Positions 24,487-62,661 are shown, numbered from the stretch's first letter. The stretch: DNA of 64,000 bases from Bacillales bacterium UBA5348 (GCA_002411005.1 DHQC01000013.1:133093-197092), one strand, 5' to 3'. The notes: generated by a model from the letters alone, not told the origin. Translations and numbers: made by a program.

Positions 24487-24667
24487 AATTCTCCTTTCGT
24501 AGTTAATATTTGAAAGATTAACTTTTTTAAGTATACATGTTTTTTGTTTGTTTGTCTAGATTATATCCTTTTATTAGGCTTAAATTTACAAAAAATAGGT
24601 AAAATGATTGGTTTCGAAACATTATTTATGTTATTTGTATTATAATAATATTTGAATGGAGTTAAAC

Positions 24668-25252
24668 ATGGTAGATATTTTAGAAAACATAATTGAAGTT
24701 ATCACAGATGTAATGAGAGTTGGAGGACCTTTAGTTGGTTTTTTCCTCATTATCTTAGAATCAATTCTGCCAATTCTACCATTAGGAGCTTTTATTGCTT
24801 TAAATAATATTGTGTTTGGTTCGTTTTGGGGTTTTATTATATCTTGGGTTGCTACTATTATCGGATGTATCATATCTTTTTATGCTTTTAGGTTAGGCTT
24901 TAGTAATATTTTATACCGTAATATTAAACTTGAAAGTAAAGTAAATAAATTTATGGTTTATATGAGGAATATTACCTTACCACAGTTAACATTACTTATT
25001 GCAATGCCATTTACCCCCGCATTTGCTGTTAATATAGCTGCAGGTCTATCAAAGATGTCCGTCGGCAAGTATTTAGCAAGTATAATTATTGGAAAAATTT
25101 CAATTGTATATTTCTGGGGATATATTGGTACTAGTTTTATTGAAAGTATTAAAGATCCTGTGATTCTTTTAGAAATTGCGGCTTTACTTGGCATAGCTTA
25201 TGTTATATCAAGATTAATTCAAAAATATTTAAATATGAATGGAGTGAAGTAA
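24668..25252 (+). CDS. TVP38/TMEM64 (DedA-like) family membrane protein
   Basis: Polytopic with DedA/TVP38 core motifs. AATGGAG RBS precedes ATG 24668. Confidence 0.7.
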   Translation: MVDILENIIEVITDVMRVGGPLVGFFLIILESILPILPLGAFIALNNIVFGSFWGFIISWVATIIGCIISFYAFRLGFSNILYRNIKLESKVNKFMVYMRNITLPQLTLLIAMPFTPAFAVNIAAGLSKMSVGKYLASIIIGKISIVYFWGYIGTSFIESIKDPVILLEIAALLGIAYVISRLIQKYLNMNGVK

Positions 25253-32692: not shown

Positions 32693-33928
32693 ATGAAAAG
32701 AGCAATTGTCTTGTCAGGTGGGGGAGCAAGAGGTTCGTATCAAATAGGTGTTTGGAAAGCTTTACGAAAATTACGCATTAAATACGATATAGTTACTGGA
32801 ACTTCAGTTGGTTCTTTAAATGGAGCTTTGATGACTCAAAAAACGTATTTTAAAGGTGTTTGGTTCTGGAAGAATATTAGTTATAAACAAGTATTTAAAG
32901 ATGAAATTATAATTTCCAAGGGCAAGAAAGACAATTTTAAAAAATATGCAAAAGCTATAATAGTAGAAAATGGAATGGATGTTTCTAATTTAGAGGATAC
33001 TGTTGAAAAGGCTTTGAATGAAAAGAAATTACGTAAATCTAATATAGATTTTGGTTTAGTTACTTTTAATTTAACTAGTTTAAAACCAATCAGACTAACC
33101 AAGAAGGAAATTCCAGTGGGAAAAATGAAAGATTATTTGATTGCTTCAGCTACATGTTATCCAGCTTTTAAGAAAAAAAGCATTGATAATGAAGAATTTA
33201 TTGATGGTGGTTATTCTGATAATTTACCAATTAATCTTGCTATCAAAATGGGGGCAGAAGAAATAATTGCAGTAGATTTGAGAACTATTGGGCTTAAACG
33301 CCGTGCAAGAAATAAGAAAGTAAAAGTAACTTACATAACACCACGAAATAGTTTAGGATCATTACTTTCATTTGATAAAATTTCAGCAAGAAGAGGAATA
33401 AGACTTGGCTATAATGATACAATGAAAATTTCCGATAAATTAGATGGCAATAAATATACCTTTAAAAAAGAACATCTAAAACGTAATTTTCAGCAATATA
33501 AAGATGTATATAAAGAAATGTTAGATAGTGTTTTAAAAGGTAATGGTAAAAATGTAATTGAAAAACTATTGAAAATTACAACCTCTTCTAATGAAATTAG
33601 TGAGAAGAGGTTTAACAAAATTGTTGAATATTTAGGAAAAGTATTTAAATTAGATGATTCTAATATATATAATATTAATTCATTTAATAAAAAACTTATT
33701 TGTGAATTGGATGAAATGCTTTTGGTTGATAAAAAGTTAGTTGAGCAAAAAATTAAGGGCAACGATATAAAGAAATTAATTAATAATAAATTTGTTATTA
33801 AATATATTTACGATAAATTAATAGCTTATGATAACAAAAAAATAGCGAGGGAATTAGCCGGAATCGCTTTATTATTACCACGTGAATTTTTAGGAGCTTC
33901 ATATTTATATGTTGTAAAAAACAACTAA
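32693..33928 (+). CDS. Patatin-like phospholipase
   Basis: Oxyanion motif GGGARG and catalytic GTSVGS (GxSxG), with the Asp of the DGG dyad (FIDGGYSDN). Confidence 0.8.
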   Translation: MKRAIVLSGGGARGSYQIGVWKALRKLRIKYDIVTGTSVGSLNGALMTQKTYFKGVWFWKNISYKQVFKDEIIISKGKKDNFKKYAKAIIVENGMDVSNLEDTVEKALNEKKLRKSNIDFGLVTFNLTSLKPIRLTKKEIPVGKMKDYLIASATCYPAFKKKSIDNEEFIDGGYSDNLPINLAIKMGAEEIIAVDLRTIGLKRRARNKKVKVTYITPRNSLGSLLSFDKISARRGIRLGYNDTMKISDKLDGNKYTFKKEHLKRNFQQYKDVYKEMLDSVLKGNGKNVIEKLLKITTSSNEISEKRFNKIVEYLGKVFKLDDSNIYNINSFNKKLICELDEMLLVDKKLVEQKIKGNDIKKLINNKFVIKYIYDKLIAYDNKKIARELAGIALLLPREFLGASYLYVVKNN

Positions 33929-33971: not shown

Positions 33972-34139
33972 TTACTGATAATTTCTGTTAGCTATTTCAA
34001 TGGCTTTAGTGACCATGTTGCCACAGTTACGCGAGGAGACTGCTCCCCAACCTTCATTTTGAACAATATTTGAAACACCTAATTCGTTAGCAATTTCATA
34101 TTTTAAATTTTCATTCATTATACCTTTATTCTTTTTCAT
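33972..34139 (-). CDS. Small acid-soluble spore protein, alpha/beta type
   Basis: Not in the ORF track (55 aa). Sequence MKKNKGIMNENLKYEIANELGVSNIVQNEGWGAVSSRNCGNMVTKAIEIANRNYQ contains both SASP signatures (K-x-E-I-A-x-E-x-G-V and the GxMVxKxIE block). GGGAGG RBS 9 nt upstream. Confidence 0.75.
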   Translation of the reverse strand: MKKNKGIMNENLKYEIANELGVSNIVQNEGWGAVSSRNCGNMVTKAIEIANRNYQ

Positions 34140-35201: not shown

Positions 35202-35948
35202 ATGGATTATTTATCATATTATCGCCAAACTGCACCTGGTATGAGTGCTTATATTATATCGGATACTAAAACATCTGATGTTAATGGAGATGGTATAAAA
35301 GATATTATATATTTAGAAGGTACAAAACCACTAGGACCTGATAGTCTTGTAGTTGATAATATTAGGGTGGTAATTCAAGATGGAAAAACAGGGAAAGGTT
35401 ATGATATTCCTTTAAAGGTTGATAAAGGATATACACCGAAACTGTTTTTAGGAAGTTTTACAAATGACAGAATCAATGAAATTTTAATTTCTATTGAGTC
35501 TGGTAACACAGGTGAGGAAGGATATTATTATATTTATTCATTTGTTAATAATAATCCTTTAAAATTATTTGATTTCGAACAATTTAATAGTAAATATAAA
35601 TATGATGTAACATATAAAGATAATTATATAATCGAAGTAAAAAGTAATGTTTTTGATAAAACCTTTTTCATAGATGTAAAAAATAAAAATCAAAGTTATT
35701 TAAATCAATTATATGATCAAGATGGTACATTGAAAAGTCAATTTAAAGGTTATGTTTCTCCTTTAGTAAATCTTCATCCAGTATCTAGTGAATCAGAATA
35801 TGGTTATGATTTATATGCAACCCAAAGAGTAGTTGGATATTATAATGCTGATACTCTAGGAATGATTATCACACCACTAAGATGGGATGGAAAGGAATTT
35901 GCAGTAGTTAATAACAATCCATATTTGATATTATTTGGTACTGAATAA
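35202..35948 (+). CDS. Hypothetical protein
   Basis: 248 aa, beta-rich. GAGGAAG RBS. Confidence 0.45.
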   Translation: MDYLSYYRQTAPGMSAYIISDTKTSDVNGDGIKDIIYLEGTKPLGPDSLVVDNIRVVIQDGKTGKGYDIPLKVDKGYTPKLFLGSFTNDRINEILISIESGNTGEEGYYYIYSFVNNNPLKLFDFEQFNSKYKYDVTYKDNYIIEVKSNVFDKTFFIDVKNKNQSYLNQLYDQDGTLKSQFKGYVSPLVNLHPVSSESEYGYDLYATQRVVGYYNADTLGMIITPLRWDGKEFAVVNNNPYLILFGTE

Positions 35949-35967: not shown

Positions 35968-35995
35968 GCCTTATAAATTAAGGCTTTTTATTTTG
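35968..35995. terminator. Terminator (convergent genes)
   Basis: Hairpin GCCTTAtaaatTAAGGC followed by TTTTTATTTT. Confidence 0.5.
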
Positions 35996-36835
35996 ATGAT
36001 ATAAAACGGTTTGAATCCATTCTGAATAAGTTATTATGTTTAAATCATTCCTTTTTTTATTGATATAGTCAATTATTTCATAATAATCTTTTTCCTTATA
36101 TATCATTAAAGTATCGTCTATTTCCTCTTCAATTTTATGGAATAGTAAAATTAATGTTAAATTATTCTCGATAGCAAAATCTATCCATGATTTTACCCAT
36201 TTTGTTTTTGTAGTAGTAAGAACATTTTTGACTTTTATGGAATAAAGATCTTTTGGATATTTAAAGTTATAACCATCCTCTACTGATCTGCCACTAATAT
36301 AATTTAATTTTTTCATGACCGAGATGGTATCACTATTATATTTTCCTTCGGGATATACTAACACATTATTTTGATTATTAAAATTATTATCTTTTAACCA
36401 AACACCACCTTGTTTTATTTCAAATTTCTGTTGTGAAATATCTGCATTAATTAAAATATTGTGATACAGTGTATGATTTAATAAATCCCAGTTTTTATCA
36501 TGTAACATGTTTAATTCGCCTATATTTAAGTACAATTGTTGATTAATAGCATTAGGAATAATTGCTATAGAACCTCTCATATCTTTCTTATTCATGTACT
36601 TAAAACCTTTAGTATATTGAGTTTTCCAGCCATCATCAAACATAATAATTATATTAGCTTTATTTTGATAAATAAATATTTCCTTTTCTTTATTTTCCTT
36701 AAATATTAGTTTTGTCTTAATTTTAAGATAATCAAAGCTATTGTTTATATTATAGAAAATATTAGGGAAAATATTTATAAGGAGCATAAGGGTAAAAATC
36801 AAACTTGTATAAAATATTAACATATTTTTTTTCAA
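35978..36835 (-). CDS. Polysaccharide deacetylase (CE4, IcaB/PgaB-like) with N-terminal TM anchor
   Basis: NodB-homology motifs MFDDGW and a His-rich region. The start is either the TTG at 36835 or the ATG at 36823. Confidence 0.7.
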   Translation of the reverse strand: MKKNMLIFYTSLIFTLMLLINIFPNIFYNINNSFDYLKIKTKLIFKENKEKEIFIYQNKANIIIMFDDGWKTQYTKGFKYMNKKDMRGSIAIIPNAINQQLYLNIGELNMLHDKNWDLLNHTLYHNILINADISQQKFEIKQGGVWLKDNNFNNQNNVLVYPEGKYNSDTISVMKKLNYISGRSVEDGYNFKYPKDLYSIKVKNVLTTTKTKWVKSWIDFAIENNLTLILLFHKIEEEIDDTLMIYKEKDYYEIIDYINKKRNDLNIITYSEWIQTVLYHQNKKP

Positions 36836-36840
36836 ATTTA

Positions 36841-38185
36841 TCAGTCCTTTTTTAAAACGTTATAATTGTGGCCACTTCTATCAACCTTATTCCATTCGTT
36901 CTTTTCGGTAAAATATGAAATAGTCCCAACTATTATAGTATATAAAATGATTATTCTATAAACAACTAAATCTAGAATTATAGTTGTAACAATCCTAATA
37001 TTATCAAGCCCTTTATATCTTACGTTGTAAAAATATGCAATAAATAGTCCGACAACATTATATGTTAAATGGACACTTATAAAGATATAAAAATATAAGG
37101 CAATATTTGATAAAGTGTTGTTCATTATATTATCAATCACAAGGATTGTAAAAACTACTATTATAAAGGAACTTAAGACACCAATAACAAGCGCATCAAC
37201 AATCATAAAAAAGGGTAGTGGTTTGGTAAGAGTGTCTTTAAATAATCTCTTTCTGAAGTTAATTAATGCTTCAATAAAGGATTTTTGCCATCTTTTTCTT
37301 TGTTTAATTAGGTCCTTAAATGTTTCTGGTCCTTCTGTATAACATATAGCCTCAGGTACATAAACTATTTTTTTATTTGTATCTTGAATATGAAATTGTA
37401 TTTTAAGAGTAAGATCCAAGTCTTCTCCGATTGTATGTGAAAACCCGCCTACATCAAGTAGTATATCTTTTCTAAAAATTCCAAAAGCTCCCGAGATAAC
37501 AAGTAACGATTCTAATTTTGCTAAAGAAGCTTTATAACAAAAACATGATTTAATATATTCAATTGCTTGTAATCTTAGTAATAGCTTTATTTTGAAGGTT
37601 GTTTTTGCCTTTTTTTGTGAAAGATTAAATGATTGTAATATTTGGATGACACCGCTAGCAGCTACGACATTTTTATCATCAAATGTTTTACTTACTAAAG
37701 ATAGAGCATCTGGTTTTAAAATACTATCAGCATCTAACGTCACAATGTATTTGTTTTTAGAATAGTTAATACCTAAATTTAAAGCATCACTTTTCCCCCC
37801 CGTTATTTTTATCTATAAGATACATATTAGGATATAACTCGGATCTGTATATACATTTCATATTATAAGAATCTAAATTGTGCCGTCTTTTTCTTTTTGT
37901 TTCTTTTAATTTTAAAATGCTTTTGAATTCCTTTAAGGTATTATCGCTCGATCCATCATTTATAAATATGCATTCAAAATTATCATATTCAATTCTTAAT
38001 AATCCTTCAATTGTATTTTTAATTATCTTTTCCTCATTATAGCAGGGAATTAGAATGGTGACAGGGCGTATTATATTTTTCTTTATATTCTTTTTTCCCC
38101 TCTTTATACTTAATAGAACATTTAAAATATGGAAAAGAGGAAAGAATATTCCGAGAAATAAAAATATTTCTAATAATAATCTCAT
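36841..38185 (-). pseudogene. Processive family-2 glycosyltransferase (IcaA/PgaC/cellulose-synthase-like), split into two ORFs by a frameshift at a G7 tract
   Basis: ORF 37787..38185 has an N-terminal TM and the PCYNEE/DGSSD motifs, ending ...KNNGGEK*. ORF 36841..37743 plus its upstream open frame reads GGKSDALNLG...TLDADS...GEDLDLT...QRKRWQKS (D,D,D,QxxRW) with 4 C-terminal TM helices. Removing one G from the coding-strand G7 run (plus-strand C7 at 37795-37801) fuses them in frame. Confidence 0.7.
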
Positions 38186-38961
38186 GGCATATTCAAATGT
38201 TTAGGTATAATTATTACGTAATCAATTACAGTTTTAACTGGAAAAATATCATTATTAGGTTGCCCAGGCCAATTACCACCAACGGCGAGATTCAAAATTA
38301 AATACATTTTTTTGTTAGGAATCCCAACTTCAGATTTATATATTAATTTGTTATTTATGTAACCTTTTATCTCTTTTTCATTCCACTCGATTTCATAAAT
38401 TGCAAAGTCATTCTCATTCTTAATATTGGTAAATTTTTTTCTTGATGATCCGTCTAAATCTTTATAATGTATTCCAGTCCATATTTCGTCTTCCCCTTTA
38501 TTACCTAAAACTTCCATCATATCAACTTCGGGAAAAAGAGAATCGTCTGCTGGCAGGAGCCAAGCGGCTGACAAAAGGCCATTTCCAACGGCAGGTCTGA
38601 TTTTAAATATAATTTTCCCGTATAGAAATTCGAATTTACCTTTGGTTGTAATCATTCCTGAAGTATAGTTATGATCTTTAAAATTTTCTTTTTTTGCAAC
38701 TAATTCTAAAAGTCCGTCAATGATACTGATATTCTTTGGATTATAATATTGTAGGTCATTATTATAGCTTTCTCCTTGTTCAACAGCATTCCAAAATCTT
38801 GTATTAAGTTTCCCATTAAAATCATCAACTAAAATATTATTATTTTCTTCTTCAATAACATTTATTTTGTAGACTTTCTGATATGGCGTTTTTGTTATTA
38901 AACAAAAAAATACGATTAGTAAAATAAAAAATGTATATTTCATGATACGTTTTTTATTCAT
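38182..38961 (-). CDS. Glycoside hydrolase family 16 (beta-glucanase/laminarinase-like) with signal/TM anchor
   Basis: Catalytic motif EVDMMEVLG (ExDxxE) and the GH16 beta-jelly-roll pattern. GAGGTGA RBS. Its stop overlaps the GT2 start (ATGA). Confidence 0.75.
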   Translation of the reverse strand: MNKKRIMKYTFFILLIVFFCLITKTPYQKVYKINVIEEENNNILVDDFNGKLNTRFWNAVEQGESYNNDLQYYNPKNISIIDGLLELVAKKENFKDHNYTSGMITTKGKFEFLYGKIIFKIRPAVGNGLLSAAWLLPADDSLFPEVDMMEVLGNKGEDEIWTGIHYKDLDGSSRKKFTNIKNENDFAIYEIEWNEKEIKGYINNKLIYKSEVGIPNKKMYLILNLAVGGNWPGQPNNDIFPVKTVIDYVIIIPKHLNMP

Positions 38962-39059: not shown

Positions 39060-39100
39060 ACAATCTATGCAAAATAAAAGATTTGTGAAAATCCACAAAT
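39060..39100 (-). terminator. Terminator downstream of the 39114 gene
   Basis: Hairpin GATTTGTGaaaatCCACAAATC, with TTTTATTTTG following on the minus strand. Confidence 0.45.
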
Positions 39101-39113
39101 CCTAAATACAGAT

Positions 39114-40139
39114 TTAATTTTTCTTCTTATTAGATATCTTAAGAGCTATTTCCAGTTTATCTAATAATATTTGTTCTAATACTGTTATCTTTGAGATGGT
39201 TTTATTAATTGATGCATTAATTTTTAATATATCAGATTGTTTATCAGAATTTTCTAAAGCAATTTTAATTTTCTGGGTTTCAGTATTTAAAATTTCTGCT
39301 AAAGAACTTTCAATAGATGCAATAGATTCTATAATATCAATTTCAGTTTTACGTTTTTCTTGAGATTTGCTGTGACAATTATTGCGATAACATTTTATGT
39401 CAGTTAAATAAATATAATTATATAAATCGTTTTTTGTAACAAGTAATTGGAGTAAACCATCTATATTCATTAAACTGTTTATTGTTATATCATCATCAAT
39501 ATAAATGTTTTTAATAATGTTTCCCCTACGTGAAGCTAAGGCAATAAATGAGGATCCATTTTTAGAATAGGCTATATATTTGTAATTAGAAAAACAGAGA
39601 CTAGCTGTAATTTCTACTTCTTTGATATTTGTGATGGTGGAAACACATGTATGACGACCATTTTTTGTTGTGAGATTATTTTGAACATAATCTTTTTTAT
39701 ACTCATTAGATATAGCATATATTTGTATTTCTTCTTTAATAAAATAACCCTCTTCAGTTATTGAATAAACACTATTTGTTGTGGTAATTAATATTGTTTT
39801 ATGCTCTTTGTTATAGGATAAATTTTTAATAGGATATAAATATTTATCAGGAACCATTAATTTAATAATATTGATTTCAATAAAGCTTTGATCTAAAACA
39901 TAAATATTTTTACTATCATCAACACTTGATACATAAAAAGATTCATCATGTCCATTATTAATTATTGAATTATAAGGTTTGTTAGTTTGAAAGGTTTTTT
40001 TTTCTAAAGTGATTGTGTTATAGATTGATATAGAGCAACTATAGGGTTGTACTAAATAATATATGTGATTAAGAAAAATGCTGCCTTTGTATATATTTGT
40101 TGGATCATTTAGTAAGGGAAAAGATTTGAATGTATTAAT
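39114..40139 (-). CDS. Hypothetical beta-rich protein with C-terminal helical IIESxAxxExxL...ITVLxxxL domain. The annotated ATG (39857) lacks an RBS and the frame stays open to a consensus SD 300 nt upstream, so a non-canonical ATT start is possible.
   Basis: The ORF track gives 39114..39857. The same frame is stop-free for 101 further codons up to AAAGGAGGT (minus strand, plus 40151-40158), with ATT 8 nt downstream of it (plus 40137-40139) and a TAA immediately upstream. Confidence 0.45.
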   Translation of the reverse strand: MNTFKSFPLLNDPTNIYKGSIFLNHIYYLVQPYSCSISIYNTITLEKKTFQTNKPYNSIINNGHDESFYVSSVDDSKNIYVLDQSFIEINIIKLMVPDKYLYPIKNLSYNKEHKTILITTTNSVYSITEEGYFIKEEIQIYAISNEYKKDYVQNNLTTKNGRHTCVSTITNIKEVEITASLCFSNYKYIAYSKNGSSFIALASRRGNIIKNIYIDDDITINSLMNIDGLLQLLVTKNDLYNYIYLTDIKCYRNNCHSKSQEKRKTEIDIIESIASIESSLAEILNTETQKIKIALENSDKQSDILKINASINKTISKITVLEQILLDKLEIALKISNKKKN

Positions 40140-40255: not shown

Positions 40256-40549
40256 ATGTCTGACCCAACATCTAAAATGCCCGAAAGGTATATTACTAGA
40301 GAACAGGCAATTACTGATATTATTGAATCAGTTGCTTTAGAAGAAGCTGCTTTGTCTCATATCTTAAAAGCAGAAGGAGATAAAATCCATAAGTTTTTAG
40401 AAAAAGCTAGATGCCCAGGTGATTTACTACTTATTAATAAATCGGTTCAATCTATGATTAGTGTAATCACAGTTCTACAAGCTGTTCTACATGCTAAAAT
40501 TGAACTTTTTGCTTGTGATAATAATGATTATGAGTATGAGGAATATTAA
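40256..40549 (+). CDS. Small helical protein paralogous to the C-terminal domain of the divergent 39114 gene
   Basis: 97 aa. DIIESVALEEAALSHILKAEGDKI...LLLINKSVQSMISVITVLQAVLHAKIE aligns with IIESIASIESSLAEILNTETQKI...ILKINASINKTISKITVLEQILLDKLE in the neighbour. AAAGGAGG RBS. Confidence 0.5.
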   Translation: MSDPTSKMPERYITREQAITDIIESVALEEAALSHILKAEGDKIHKFLEKARCPGDLLLINKSVQSMISVITVLQAVLHAKIELFACDNNDYEYEEY

Positions 40550-40605: not shown

Positions 40606-41474
40606 TTATTTTTCATTTTTCATTTTATAAGTTAATCCATAACCTCCAGGTCCGATATGACTAGCAATTACAGGCCCAATTTCAGTTAATATATATTTGC
40701 CGGTTATTTTTAAATTTTCAACATTTTCTTGCAATTTAACTGCACCATCTAAATTATCAGAATGTACAATTCCAATTGCATCAATATCATTTTTATCAAT
40801 TTTCGAAAGCATTCTATCTATTAATATTGAATTCATTCTTTTTGAACCTCTAACTTTTTCAACAACTTGTACTTTACCAAATTCGTCTATATTTATTAAA
40901 GGTTTTACTCTTAATAGTTGACCTAATGAGGCCGCTGTTTTTGAAATACGTCCACCATGGATAAGATAAGTTAAATCATCTACAAAAAATTCAATGTTAT
41001 AGTAGTCTTTGTATTTGTTGATATATGTGATTATTTCTTCGTAATTTTTCCCTTCTTTTTTCATATTTAAAGCCTTTAGTGCTATAAGACCTTCAGCAAG
41101 TGATCCAGTTAAAGAATCAATAACAGCTATTTTTGAATCGGGATATTTCTTTTGTAACATGTTTTTAGCGATTACGATGTTGTTATAGCTGCTACTTAAT
41201 CCAGATGAAAGACATATACAAATAATGTCATTACCTTTTGTTAGGTCTTCTTCAAAAAGCTCTACAGCTTTAGATGTGTTGACAGCAGCTGTTCTTGGCA
41301 TTGCTCCTGTCCTCATTTTATTAAAATTTCTCTCATAGTAAGATTTTTTTCATCACCATACTCAATATCTTCACCATTAAAATAGTAATATATTGGTATT
41401 GTTTTAATTTCTGGATAGTCCTTTATATTTGGAATATCTGAGCATTTGTCTACAAAAATAGAAATATCATTCAT
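40606..41474 (-). pseudogene. degV: DegV/FakB family fatty-acid-binding protein, frameshifted near an A7 tract
   Basis: The N-terminal 53 codons (MNDISIFVDKCSDIPNIKDYPEIKTIPIYYYFNGEDIEYGDEK...) run from ATG 41474 (GGTGGAGGG RBS) to a TGA at 41313-41315. The rest (ORF 40606..41316, ...SSGLSSSYNN... DegV core) is in the -1 frame. Adding one A to the coding-strand A7 run (plus T7 at 41344-41350) restores ...DEKKSYYERNFNKMRTGAMPRTAAVN... Confidence 0.6.
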
Positions 41475-43567: not shown

Positions 43568-43596
43568 TTGACTTTGCAAAGTTCTTACTATATAAT
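43568..43596 (+). promoter_or_regulatory. Sigma-A-type promoter for the 43638 gene
   Basis: TTGACT, a 17-nt spacer, then TATAAT. Confidence 0.55.
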
Positions 43597-43637
43597 AGCA
43601 ACCCAATTAAAACGTTTTAAAAAGGCGAGGTGATCAT

Positions 43638-45107
43638 ATGAGCTTTTATCCCTTAGAAAGATTAAAAAGTGGAAAGATTGATTTTTTATTTAATCTAACA
43701 CCATCTGATAGAAAAAGAATTATTGAAGATCTGAGAAAATCAGAAGAAAGAGAAATTATTGTGGCAGAATTTTTAAGTAAGGCAATAAAACGTTTGCCCT
43801 ACTTTTGCCTTGAAGTAATATATGATATGGATAAATATTATAATGAAACCTTTGACTTATTAAAAAAATATAAAATAGCTTTTGATGATGAAAAAATTGG
43901 TAATGTAATTAACAACACCTCTTTTGGCGAAAAATATGTATATGATAACTTGGATGAAATACTATTGAAAAACGAAGAATCAAGAATAGATATGCTAATT
44001 GATTTTGCGTATAATAAATCTGAAAATAAAGATAAATGGCTTTGTAGATTGTCAAAAAACAATAATTTGCATCAACGAGCTTTATTTATGATAAGTATAT
44101 TAAAAAAGCATCCTCAGGATTTAGCAGAAATTTATGATAATATAATTGAATATTTAACTTCCGAAAATGGTTTTGGTGATATACAATTATCTTGGTTTCC
44201 GGAAAAGATTTCGTCTAAGGATTTAAGTTTAATAACATACTTAGTATCAAAAACCAAATTAGATCGAAGTTTATATTTAGAATTAAAAGAGTATTTGTTA
44301 ACTAATTATAAAGAAAATGATTTGGCTGAAATGTTTTTAAAGAATTATCTAATTTCAAACAGAAACTTTCAAATAGATTCCAGGGAATCAGGAATGATTG
44401 AATTTAAACAAGATTCAAACAGATTATTTAAAACTTCCAGAAATTATCAACTCCGAATTTTAGAACAATATAGTGAAAACATAAGCAAAGACTTGTTAGA
44501 AAAATTCAAATATTATTTACAGTTTTTTCAAAATGAAAACGTTCCAAGATATTTATTGTCAGAAATGTTTAGTAAAGGATTAGGTTCGGATATAAGAAGA
44601 TGTATAGATATTTATTACCCTAAGAGTAAGGAACAAAGTTGTGAATTTGTTGGAAGGGGTAGTACTAGTAGTTGTTTTAGAATAGGGGATTATGTTTTAA
44701 AATTGAGTACTATAAAATGGTCTTACGAGGATGTTATTTGTCCAAATTTATATTTGATAATTAAAAATGAAGAGGAAAAATTCGTTCGCGATGATAAGGG
44801 TATTGTAAGAGCAGCCCTAGAAGTTCAAAAACACTTAAAAAGAACTGCTAAAGATCTACCTTCTGAACATTTTGTCTACTTTAATAAAGAACTTAATAGA
44901 TTGGGTTATATGTATACCGATACATTAATAAATGGAATGTGTGGAGATAATTGTATGCTTTTAGACAGTTATAAGGATGCTGATTGTTTTAATCCTGAAA
45001 GTTTACCAGAAATGTTTAAAAGGGTACCATTAGTATTAATTGATAGAGATAGAGTCTATCCTAAAAACAAAATTTATATTAAGCAATTAAGCGAAGGCCA
45101 TTCTTAA
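43638..45107 (+). CDS. Hypothetical protein: N-terminal alpha-helical domain plus C-terminal atypical protein-kinase-like domain
   Basis: The C-terminal 160 aa carry a Gly-rich loop VGRGSTSSCF, beta3 Lys context YVLKL, then ...GMCGDNCML... and ...VLIDRDR..., consistent with RIO/Kdo-type minimal kinases. Strong promoter and RBS. Confidence 0.45.
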   Translation: MSFYPLERLKSGKIDFLFNLTPSDRKRIIEDLRKSEEREIIVAEFLSKAIKRLPYFCLEVIYDMDKYYNETFDLLKKYKIAFDDEKIGNVINNTSFGEKYVYDNLDEILLKNEESRIDMLIDFAYNKSENKDKWLCRLSKNNNLHQRALFMISILKKHPQDLAEIYDNIIEYLTSENGFGDIQLSWFPEKISSKDLSLITYLVSKTKLDRSLYLELKEYLLTNYKENDLAEMFLKNYLISNRNFQIDSRESGMIEFKQDSNRLFKTSRNYQLRILEQYSENISKDLLEKFKYYLQFFQNENVPRYLLSEMFSKGLGSDIRRCIDIYYPKSKEQSCEFVGRGSTSSCFRIGDYVLKLSTIKWSYEDVICPNLYLIIKNEEEKFVRDDKGIVRAALEVQKHLKRTAKDLPSEHFVYFNKELNRLGYMYTDTLINGMCGDNCMLLDSYKDADCFNPESLPEMFKRVPLVLIDRDRVYPKNKIYIKQLSEGHS

Positions 45108-45149
45108 AACAATAAACTCTAACTAATTGTAGTTAGAGTTTATTGTTTC
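45108..45149. terminator. Bidirectional terminator (18-bp perfect stem)
   Basis: Hairpin AACAATAAACTCTAACTAattgTAGTTAGAGTTTATTGTT. Confidence 0.65.
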
Positions 45150-45610
45150 TTTAAGTCTAATAAATGTTGAATTTGCCAATTTCTTTCATCTTCCATTAAT
45201 TGAGTAACATTATCTTTATCTTTATCTTTATCTTTATTTAAATGATATATAGCTGAAACTACATACATGGCTGATCCTTCTGAATGGGTAGGGACATGGC
45301 AAGTCACTAAAGCATGGCTACAGGCCCTACAAATTTGACATGCTGCTTTATCGATTGGTTCTAATTCTCTAGCAGCGGCTAGAGCAGGATATGTGAACTT
45401 TCTAGCATCCCACATTTTCATCTCACCGTTAATCCATTTTTTTAACATATTTATTGCAGTACGAGGTCTAACCTCATTGGAATATTTATCCTCAAGTAAT
45501 GGCATATATTTTTCAACGCAATCAATTGCCCAAATAGCTAAAATCTTTTGGTCTGTTGTTTTTATTATTTCGACTAATCTAGGATCGTGCCTTAATTTTC
45601 TCATATCCAT
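45140..45610 (-). CDS. Hypothetical Cys/His-cluster protein (third gene of the DNPH1-like operon)
   Basis: 156 aa. Putative metal-binding cluster CQICRACSHALVTCHVPTH. Contains a KDKDKDKD hexanucleotide repeat. 4-nt gap to the upstream gene. Confidence 0.45.
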   Translation of the reverse strand: MDMRKLRHDPRLVEIIKTTDQKILAIWAIDCVEKYMPLLEDKYSNEVRPRTAINMLKKWINGEMKMWDARKFTYPALAAARELEPIDKAACQICRACSHALVTCHVPTHSEGSAMYVVSAIYHLNKDKDKDKDNVTQLMEDERNWQIQHLLDLKKQ

Positions 45611-61890: not shown

Positions 61891-62661
61891 ATGGAAAATA
61901 TTAGAGTATTAATGGTTGATGATAATGAAAATTTAGTAGCAATGATAAAGGAATATTTTATATCACATTTAAATATTGAAATTGTATTAGAGGCTTATGA
62001 TGGTGCAGAGGCTATGGAGATAATTGAAAAGAAGAATAACGAATATGATGTTATTATTCTGGATTTAATTATGCCTAATAGAGATGGTATCTATGTTTTA
62101 GAAGAAATGAAAAAGAAGAATATAAATAAGCCTATTATCATTTCTACTTCATATAATGCTGCAGATATGATAAGAAGAGTTTCTGAATACAATGTAAATT
62201 ATTTTATTCTCAAACCTTTTGAATTATCTGACTTAGAAAAACGAATCTTGGAATGCGTTAATAAAAAAACTCAGGATGGCAAAGTAATTAATTTACTTCA
62301 TAATAATTTACAAATATCTGTTACTAAACTCCTGCATGAATTAGGAGTACCTTCTCATATAAAAGGATATCAATACATTAGAGAAGGAATAATTATGTTA
62401 TATGAAACTCCTAGCATGATAGGTGGCATAACGAAAGAATTGTATCCAGAGATTGCAACAAAGTTTGATACTACTGTTTCGAGAGTAGAACGTGCTATTA
62501 GGCACGCTATTGAGGTTAGTTGGAATAGAGGAGACTGGAAATTGATGGAGGAAATATTTGGTCATAGTGTGGATATTGACAAGGCAAAACCTACTAATTC
62601 GGAATTTATTGTTACCATATCAGATAAGCTAAGATTAGAATTTAGGAAAGTTACAAATTGA
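61891..62661 (+). CDS. spo0A: Stage 0 sporulation protein A (Spo0A)
   Basis: Receiver domain (DDNENL...D58-type) plus the unmistakable Spo0A C-domain: SHIKGYQYIREGI, ITKELYPEIA, TTVSRVERAIRHAIEV, and PTNSEFI. Confidence 0.95.
   Translation: MENIRVLMVDDNENLVAMIKEYFISHLNIEIVLEAYDGAEAMEIIEKKNNEYDVIILDLIMPNRDGIYVLEEMKKKNINKPIIISTSYNAADMIRRVSEYNVNYFILKPFELSDLEKRILECVNKKTQDGKVINLLHNNLQISVTKLLHELGVPSHIKGYQYIREGIIMLYETPSMIGGITKELYPEIATKFDTTVSRVERAIRHAIEVSWNRGDWKLMEEIFGHSVDIDKAKPTNSEFIVTISDKLRLEFRKVTN

Follow-up and report, generated by a model that had tools for sequence, protein, structure and literature searches.

A one-base expansion of a G run splits a processive GT2 synthase gene in a Bacillales genome: probably a recent loss-of-function allele rather than a phase-variation switch

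In a 64,000-nucleotide stretch of the genome of Bacillales bacterium UBA5348 (hereafter, the window), two adjacent minus-strand ORFs encode parts of a processive GT2 synthase, lie in different frames and meet at a run of seven G residues. This arrangement raises the question of whether the run is an on/off switch of exopolysaccharide synthesis, as the original prediction suggested, or whether the split reflects an ordinary inactivating mutation, a sequencing error, or programmed recoding. The break involves the following features:

37795..37801, minus strand: G7 homopolymer (C7, that is, CCCCCCC, on the plus strand), the site of a +1G frameshift
37787..38185, minus strand: fragment of 132 aa from the N-terminus of the GT2 synthase, with transmembrane (TM) helix 1 followed by the N-terminal half of the GT-A domain; its C-terminus is ...NNGGEK, followed by the stop
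36841..37812, minus strand: C-terminal frame of the GT2 synthase, with the DAD, GED and QRKRW motifs and the C-terminal TM helices

At the break, the minus strand reads GAT AAA AAT AAC GGG GGG GAA AAG TGA; the G7 run spans the codons for Gly129 and Gly130 of the GGKSDALN motif, and the frame of this allele closes at a TGA (37787-37789) two codons past the shift. Deletion of one G fuses the two frames into a continuous protein, as originally predicted, although the length of this protein is 447 aa rather than about 435 aa. The repaired protein is already on record as P0001 (100% identity over 447 aa), which is encoded on 7 public contigs and bears the NCBI name 'MAG: Bacilli bacterium'. Residues 1-130 of the intact protein are matched exactly by the N-terminal fragment (37787-38185). 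The C-terminal frame is open from 37812, and the part of it that the ORF tool lists, starting from GTG 37743 (36841-37743, minus strand, 300 aa), is 100% identical to residues 148-447. The repaired frame and the identity to P0001, together with the Pfam matches described below, thus bear out the proposal that the two ORFs together make up a single processive GT2 synthase, and the sequence around the break confirms that the interruption lies inside the G run and is mended by removal of a single G. Separate translation of the 300-aa fragment can be rejected because no Shine-Dalgarno sequence precedes GTG 37743, and the ATG that overlaps the TGA lies in another frame, which closes after two codons.

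The run at 37795-37801 is the only G/C homopolymer of at least six nucleotides in the window and coincides with the change of the ORF frame; altogether, the window, with a GC content of 28.7%, contains a single C7, the one described here, along with twelve G5/C5 runs, whereas runs of exactly six are absent. The presence of a G7 is not statistically unusual per se: a mean of 0.8 such runs is expected by chance in 64 kb, and at least one appeared in 50 of 100 dinucleotide shuffles. What is non-random is the position of the run at the frame junction, together with the occurrence of G6 at the same site in sister strains.

The repaired protein contains all the motifs named in the original prediction, namely, GGK(S/A)xALN (GGKSDALN, residues 129-136), DAD (151-153), GEDxD (GEDLD, 253-257) and QRKRW (295-299). 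The processive GT2 signature D, DxD, (T/G)ED, QxxRW is represented by D77, D151-A-D153, G253-E-D255 and Q295-R-K-R-W299, and the columns of G130, K131, D151, D153, G253-E254-D255, Q295, R296, R298 and W299 are invariant among the 47 homologues aligned. The protein passes the Pfam thresholds for GT2 domains (PF00535, 96 bits; PF13641, 89.8 bits; PF13632, 71 bits). In an AlphaFold2 model (pLDDT 91.6, pTM 0.90), an N-terminal TM helix (residues 2-24) is followed by the GT-A domain and then by three long helices in the C-terminal part (322-354, 358-385 and 393-426). The best Foldseek matches of this model are the hyaluronan synthases of a Chlorella virus and Xenopus, Chs1 and BcsA (E-values of 1e-18 to 1e-11, TM-scores of about 0.5-0.6). 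Judging from the sequence and the model, the gene encodes a membrane-integrated processive GT2 synthase of the superfamily that comprises BcsA, HAS, chitin synthase and PgaC. The top NCBIfam match is TIGR03937 (PgaC_IcaA), with a score of 157.3 bits, well under the equivalog cut-off of 422.3 bits; because of this difference, the protein is a relative of the PNAG (poly-beta-1,6-GlcNAc) synthases but not a TIGR03937 equivalog. Thus, the IcaA/PgaC-like label that was initially attached to the gene holds at the superfamily level and fails as an equivalog assignment.

The synthase gene stands second of three in a compact unit on the minus strand, which is bounded by two terminator-like hairpins:

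39078..39103, minus strand: terminator-like hairpin upstream of the operon, which ends the preceding Ena-like gene
38182..38961, minus strand: operon gene 1, GH16-family glycanase/transglycosylase, 259 aa (PF00722, 67.5 bits; EVDMME catalytic motif)
35978..36835, minus strand: operon gene 3, CE4 polysaccharide deacetylase, 285 aa (PF01522, 54.7 bits; motifs MFDDG and HTLYH)
35968..35984, minus strand: terminator-like hairpin at the end of the three-gene unit, by the 3' end of the deacetylase gene

The GH16 protein, with an N-terminal membrane anchor, is either membrane-anchored or secreted; the stop codon of its gene overlaps the start codon of the GT2 gene (ATGA, a 4-nt overlap). The CE4 deacetylase carries an N-terminal TM or signal segment, and its gene starts 5 nt past the GT2 stop. 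The unit between the two terminators consists of the GH16, GT2 and CE4 genes only, and a small membrane partner of the PgaD/IcaD type is absent from it. The GH16-GT2-CE4 order is kept in four other species, with synthases that are 63-73% identical and flanking genes that are unrelated each time; GH16-GT2 synteny is seen at loci L012, L014, L017, L019 and L020. Because the gene order is retained in the four species despite the different flanks, GH16-GT2-CE4 appears to be a conserved functional module of the synthase-dependent exopolysaccharide type. A synthase, a deacetylase and a glycoside hydrolase together are the standard make-up of the synthase-dependent systems for PNAG and Pel (PMC7112194). 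By analogy, the polymer produced by the module probably contains GlcNAc. The pair at L020 (Priestia megaterium, GCA_947495485.1, 5132-7380) consists of GH16 and GT2 genes without the deacetylase, with a synthase that is 43% identical; it is embedded in a long run of small ORFs of prophage-like appearance, with a T5orf172 domain encoded nearby.

Two Ena-like genes directly upstream of the operon (39114-39857, minus strand, and 40256-40549, plus strand) carry the label PF26595 (A_ENA) in precomputed tables, which we take to denote endospore-appendage-like proteins; scans against Pfam and NCBIfam recovered this label for neither gene. Several other genes in the vicinity are spore-related, namely, those for a SASP (33972-34139), a YybI_C-domain protein (35202-35948) and Spo0A (61891-62661), and because of these genes, the host is probably an endospore former.

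Comparison of the tract length in related strains, which had been proposed as a check along with the original prediction, revealed a real G6/G7 polymorphism. The G6 allele was found at the following loci:

L001 (SRR22315503): 99.6% DNA identity to the window; G6, single ORF
L002 (ERZ27250894): 99.6% DNA identity to the window; G6, single ORF
L006 (JGI Ga0265294): 99.8% DNA identity to the window; G6, conserved frame uninterrupted
L005 (JGI 3300014203): 88% DNA identity to the window; G6, single ORF

L001, L002 and L006 are conspecific with the window; G7 is carried by the window itself and by L003 and L004. Because the three conspecific loci and the 88%-identical relative all have G6 and a single ORF, G6 is the ancestral state, and G7 is derived from it by the gain of one G. 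In orthologues at 63-73% protein identity, the Gly-Gly pair is encoded by GGA GGG, GGT GGT or GGC GGA, and GGG GGG is limited to this species and its 88%-identical relative. Given that the distant orthologues use these other Gly-Gly codons, the run is an incidental result of the codons chosen in this group of species and is not maintained as such.

The DNA pattern AATAACGGGGGN{0,5}AAAAGTGATGC, when used to scan metagenome contigs, yielded one extra conspecific locus, the G6-bearing L006; a match of the same pattern among genome contigs, in a Poribacteria MAG, was discarded as a chance hit (GGGGGC, no similarity to the window). A P0001-guided scan of the genome contigs produced 423 pattern hits, none of which was confirmed; apparently, neither the species nor any close relative is represented there. 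Protein clusters at 90% identity contain only full-length forms and G7 fragments, with no products of G5 or G8 alleles. Nor was G7 found on a second background: the G7 assemblies compared (Logan, MEGAHIT/ENA and JGI) match the window at 100.000% identity over 12.9-20.6 kb. The search for recurrence covers two conspecific lineages only, and its negative outcome is, for this reason, weak evidence against switching.

Taken together, these observations make it probable that the window carries a real, recent, lineage-specific loss-of-function allele of the processive GT2 synthase that was produced by slippage, rather than an established switch. In the ancestral gene, the two invariant glycines of GGKSDALN, the motif that binds the UDP-sugar, are written GGG GGG (G6), and replication slippage within this run presumably added one G (G7) in the sampled clone. 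The frame shifts as a result, and translation ends two codons on, at TGA 37787-37789. The 132-aa stub is devoid of DxD, GED, QxxRW and the translocation channel and would, accordingly, produce no polymer. A ribosome-binding site is missing from the downstream 300-aa frame, and translational coupling to the CE4 deacetylase gene would probably be lost. Reversion from G7 to G6 would be possible in principle, at the raised rate that is typical of 6-7-nt runs.

The pattern of substitutions is compatible with a recent origin of the break. Within the GT2 gene, the two lineages differ by 4 SNPs, all of which are synonymous, whereas 15 of the 34 coding SNPs in the 12.7-kb region compared are non-synonymous; at the regional ratio, the chance of 0/4 non-synonymous changes is about 0.1. 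The four synonymous SNPs hint at selection on the gene until a short time ago and at a recent break, although the absence of non-synonymous decay is also compatible with periodic switching of the gene back to the intact state. Across the 12.7 kb, the gene for a patatin-like phospholipase (32693-33928, plus strand) has the highest ratio, with 7 non-synonymous vs 3 synonymous differences. Left of 30.8 kb, the comparison of the lineages met a protein (24656-25252) without a database record, and the rightward comparison of indels returned only contigs of the window lineage and a 3.3-kb fragment with one SNP.

Apart from the G run, a single indel separates the lineages within the 12.7 kb: in degV, the window clone has T4 at 41327, compared to T5 in L001 and L002. 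Instead of the single 289-aa DegV of the sister strains, the window encodes two pieces:

41313-41474, minus strand: degV piece of 53 aa
40606-41316, minus strand: degV piece of 236 aa, which covers Pfam DegV positions 53-277 of 280

The SNPs in degV (3 non-synonymous vs 2 synonymous) suggest that this gene is under relaxed selection. The degV frameshift is derived and shows that the clone fixes frameshifts outside long runs, too; because the T4/T5 run is too short to be error-prone, the clone carries genuine frameshifts. An Ena-like gene (333 aa vs 247 aa) that was considered as a third broken gene was rejected: the TTA in the window, as opposed to TTG in L001 and L002, at 40113 shifts the called start, and the difference is an annotation effect rather than a disruption, unless the TTG is the real start.

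Several other differences were observed among the strains and species compared. A segment of ~1.6 kb in the window (43587-45162) that contains a 489-aa ORF (43638-45107, plus strand) is missing from L001 and L002, and the next 0.7 kb past this segment is only 92-95% identical. The 489-aa ORF adjoins an Imm5-like gene and shows a kinase-like GxGxxS...VLK pattern in its C-terminal part; it has no match in Pfam or NCBIfam. In L001 (SRR22315503, 5225-5917), which is a G6 strain, the GH16 gene carries a TGG-to-TAG nonsense mutation (at window position 38270) and encodes 230 aa, not 259 aa. At L021 (GCA_028703555.1, 3487-4830), a GT2 orthologue from another species that is about 73% identical contains two frameshifts in short A-rich stretches (about A6), which leave pieces of 167 aa and 261 aa and a shifted C-terminus; this is a case of either recurrent decay of the synthase or a lower-quality assembly.

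The best-surviving alternative to a simple null allele, which we nevertheless consider unlikely, is that the run is a true phase-variable (contingency) locus where slipped-strand mispairing toggles G6 and G7, ON and OFF cells coexist, and the window is an OFF-majority sample. The frame is indeed set by the tract length, with G6 giving one 447-aa ORF and G7 a stop after residue 132; both alleles occur within one species, at 99.6% identity, and the broken gene shows no non-synonymous decay. Poly-G/C runs are approximately ten-fold more indel-variable than poly-A/T runs (PMC3315296), reversible switches based on 6-8-nt tracts are known in Firmicutes, including inlA with A6/A7 (PMC2831843) and flgG with A8/A7 as well as swrA (PMC9941203), and surface-polysaccharide genes, such as icaC of S. 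aureus (PMC4117637), are classic targets. The tract analysed here is at the short end of the proven switches. Furthermore, the rates for A6/A7 in Listeria are about 4e-8 to 5.5e-7 (PMC2831843), and within-culture variation in N. meningitidis is found mainly in tracts of at least 8 (PMC5084427), both of which argue against frequent toggling of a run of this size. At the locus itself, G7 is confined to a single clonal background, only two states and no homoplasy were observed in the two lineages, contigs cross the site unbroken, and the orthologues, with GGT GGT, GGA GGG or GGC GGA, do not keep the tract. The site lies mid-gene, in an invariant catalytic motif, away from the 5' end, and no other long G/C run is present in the 64 kb. 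Of the on/off switch that was originally envisaged, what stands is the reality of the G6/G7 polymorphism; beyond that, the switch is not supported, in that G7 has a single background, neither a third state nor recurrence was found in the two lineages, and the tract is unconserved in the orthologues. The fuller claim that the G6/G7 run is a working switch of an uncharacterised GH16-GT2-CE4 system in uncultured, endospore-forming, low-GC Bacilli of fermentation/digester communities is doubtful, being a shade less probable still. On balance, we regard the change as a hotspot mutation that created a null allele, reversible in principle.

A sequencing or assembly artefact, that is, an organism with a true G6 and an extra G introduced by a homopolymer miscall, was also put forward at the outset, and we find it improbable. 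The split form of the synthase (P0015 plus P0121) is on record in several assemblies:

Logan assembly of SRR1562008
MEGAHIT/ENA assembly of SRR1562008, the record of which names PRJNA260163, 'fermentation metagenome'
JGI 3300029822
NCBI contig of 364,848 bp

G7 is found in all of the Logan, MEGAHIT/ENA and JGI assemblies, and each of them agrees with the window at 100.000% identity (12.9-20.6 kb), although they may derive from one or two read sets of one project (SRR1562008 / PRJNA260163); no literature was found on PRJNA260163, SRR1562008, 3300029822 or Ga0134854. Homopolymers are the commonest sites of indel errors, a second split gene, degV, is located 3.5 kb away, and L021, which comes from another MAG, has two A-run frameshifts in the orthologous gene. 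However, the agreement of the window with the three other assemblies, all four of which are identical over at least 12.9 kb, is hard to reconcile with a miscall, a consensus error in a 7-mer being improbable at the coverage of a metagenome bin and across different assemblers. The T4 vs T5 run of degV is too short for a consensus homopolymer error, and no additional split gene turned up when several further pairs of neighbouring window ORFs were checked against Pfam.

Programmed recoding, in which the full-length synthase would be made from the G7 allele via +1 ribosomal frameshifting on GGG GGG G or via RNA-polymerase slippage that drops one G, is highly improbable: on GGG-G, a slipped tRNA-Gly could again pair perfectly, now in the +1 frame, with a stop two codons later, and transcriptional slippage can occur at homopolymer runs, but the split is not conserved (L001, L002, L005, L006, L012, L014, L017 and L019 all have single ORFs), the codon after the slip site is the common GAA, neither a stop nor rare, an upstream Shine-Dalgarno-like stimulator is not evident, and efficient transcriptional slippage is known at A/T runs of about 9 or more.

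If the G7 allele is, as we favour, a recent loss-of-function mutation, the annotation should merge the two ORFs into a single frameshifted gene, and the strain represented by the window is predicted to be unable to make a polymer that its sister strains can make. GH16-GT2-CE4 has the appearance of a synthase-dependent polysaccharide system of Bacilli that is as yet uncharacterised and for which natural null alleles are available in the form of the GT2 frameshift described here, the GH16 nonsense mutation in L001 and the doubly frameshifted GT2 gene in L021. If, alternatively, the run toggles, it would be a poly-G switch that controls a polysaccharide synthase, located next to Ena-like genes in an environmental spore-former that is free-living and non-pathogenic; switches in environmental spore-formers are rarely documented, even though the mechanism itself is textbook. 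We regard the event as an ordinary slippage mutation of a familiar type, which shares the mechanism of inactivation with known phase-variable loci. Phase variation is defined by further evidence, namely, recurrence, mixed populations and measured rates.

The nearest analogues among the known systems are inlA, siaD and icaC. The poly-C tract in siaD, the polysialyltransferase gene of N. meningitidis, is the one through which, as Hammerschmidt et al. reportedly described in 1996, the capsule is phase-varied. As in siaD, a G:C homopolymer of ~7 nt resides in the gene for a polymerising glycosyltransferase, and slippage by one base leads to an early stop and no polymer. In contrast, the meningococcal switch is reported to be reversible at high frequency by experiment and also to operate within hosts, and N. 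meningitidis has many tracts of this kind; the evidence for the present locus is genomic. The inlA gene of L. monocytogenes (PMC2831843) is similar in being a Firmicute gene where a coding homopolymer of 6-7 nt differs by one base between close strains, with either an intact or a truncated surface-related product, a change that in both cases could in principle be reversed. There, A7 is in frame and A6 is truncated, with rates of about 5.5e-7 for A6 to A7 and about 3.9e-8 for A7 to A6 (PMC2831843). The inlA tract, however, is poly(A), is located at the extreme 5' end and has at least 2 independent origins (PMC2831843), compared to a poly(G) run in a mid-gene catalytic motif with a single origin in our case.

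Also comparable are swrA of B. subtilis and flgG of P. glucanolyticus, which likewise are genes of spore-forming Bacilli with coding homopolymers of 7-8 nt where a one-base indel gives a null allele (PMC9941203). Those runs are poly(A) near the 5' ends of motility genes, and reversion was shown in culture, with revertants recovered (PMC9941203), as opposed to the purely genomic evidence in our case. In S. aureus, slipped-strand inactivation hits icaC, in a Gram-positive exopolysaccharide operon that also combines a GT2 synthase with a CE4 deacetylase (PMC4117637); the repeat involved is a TTTA tetranucleotide in the accessory icaC gene rather than a homopolymer in the synthase gene (PMC4117637), and the operon described here includes a GH16 gene instead of icaD and icaC. 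With respect to the encoded machinery, the closest counterpart is the PgaC/IcaA and PgaB/IcaB pair. Unlike PgaC/IcaA, the GT2 synthase is encoded without a PgaD/IcaD partner, scores far below the TIGR03937 cut-off and is accompanied by a hydrolase that is a separate GH16 protein, but the two systems share the GT2 motifs, the adjacent CE4 deacetylase and a hydrolase activity within the operon, which in PgaB takes the form of a hydrolase domain (PMC7112194).
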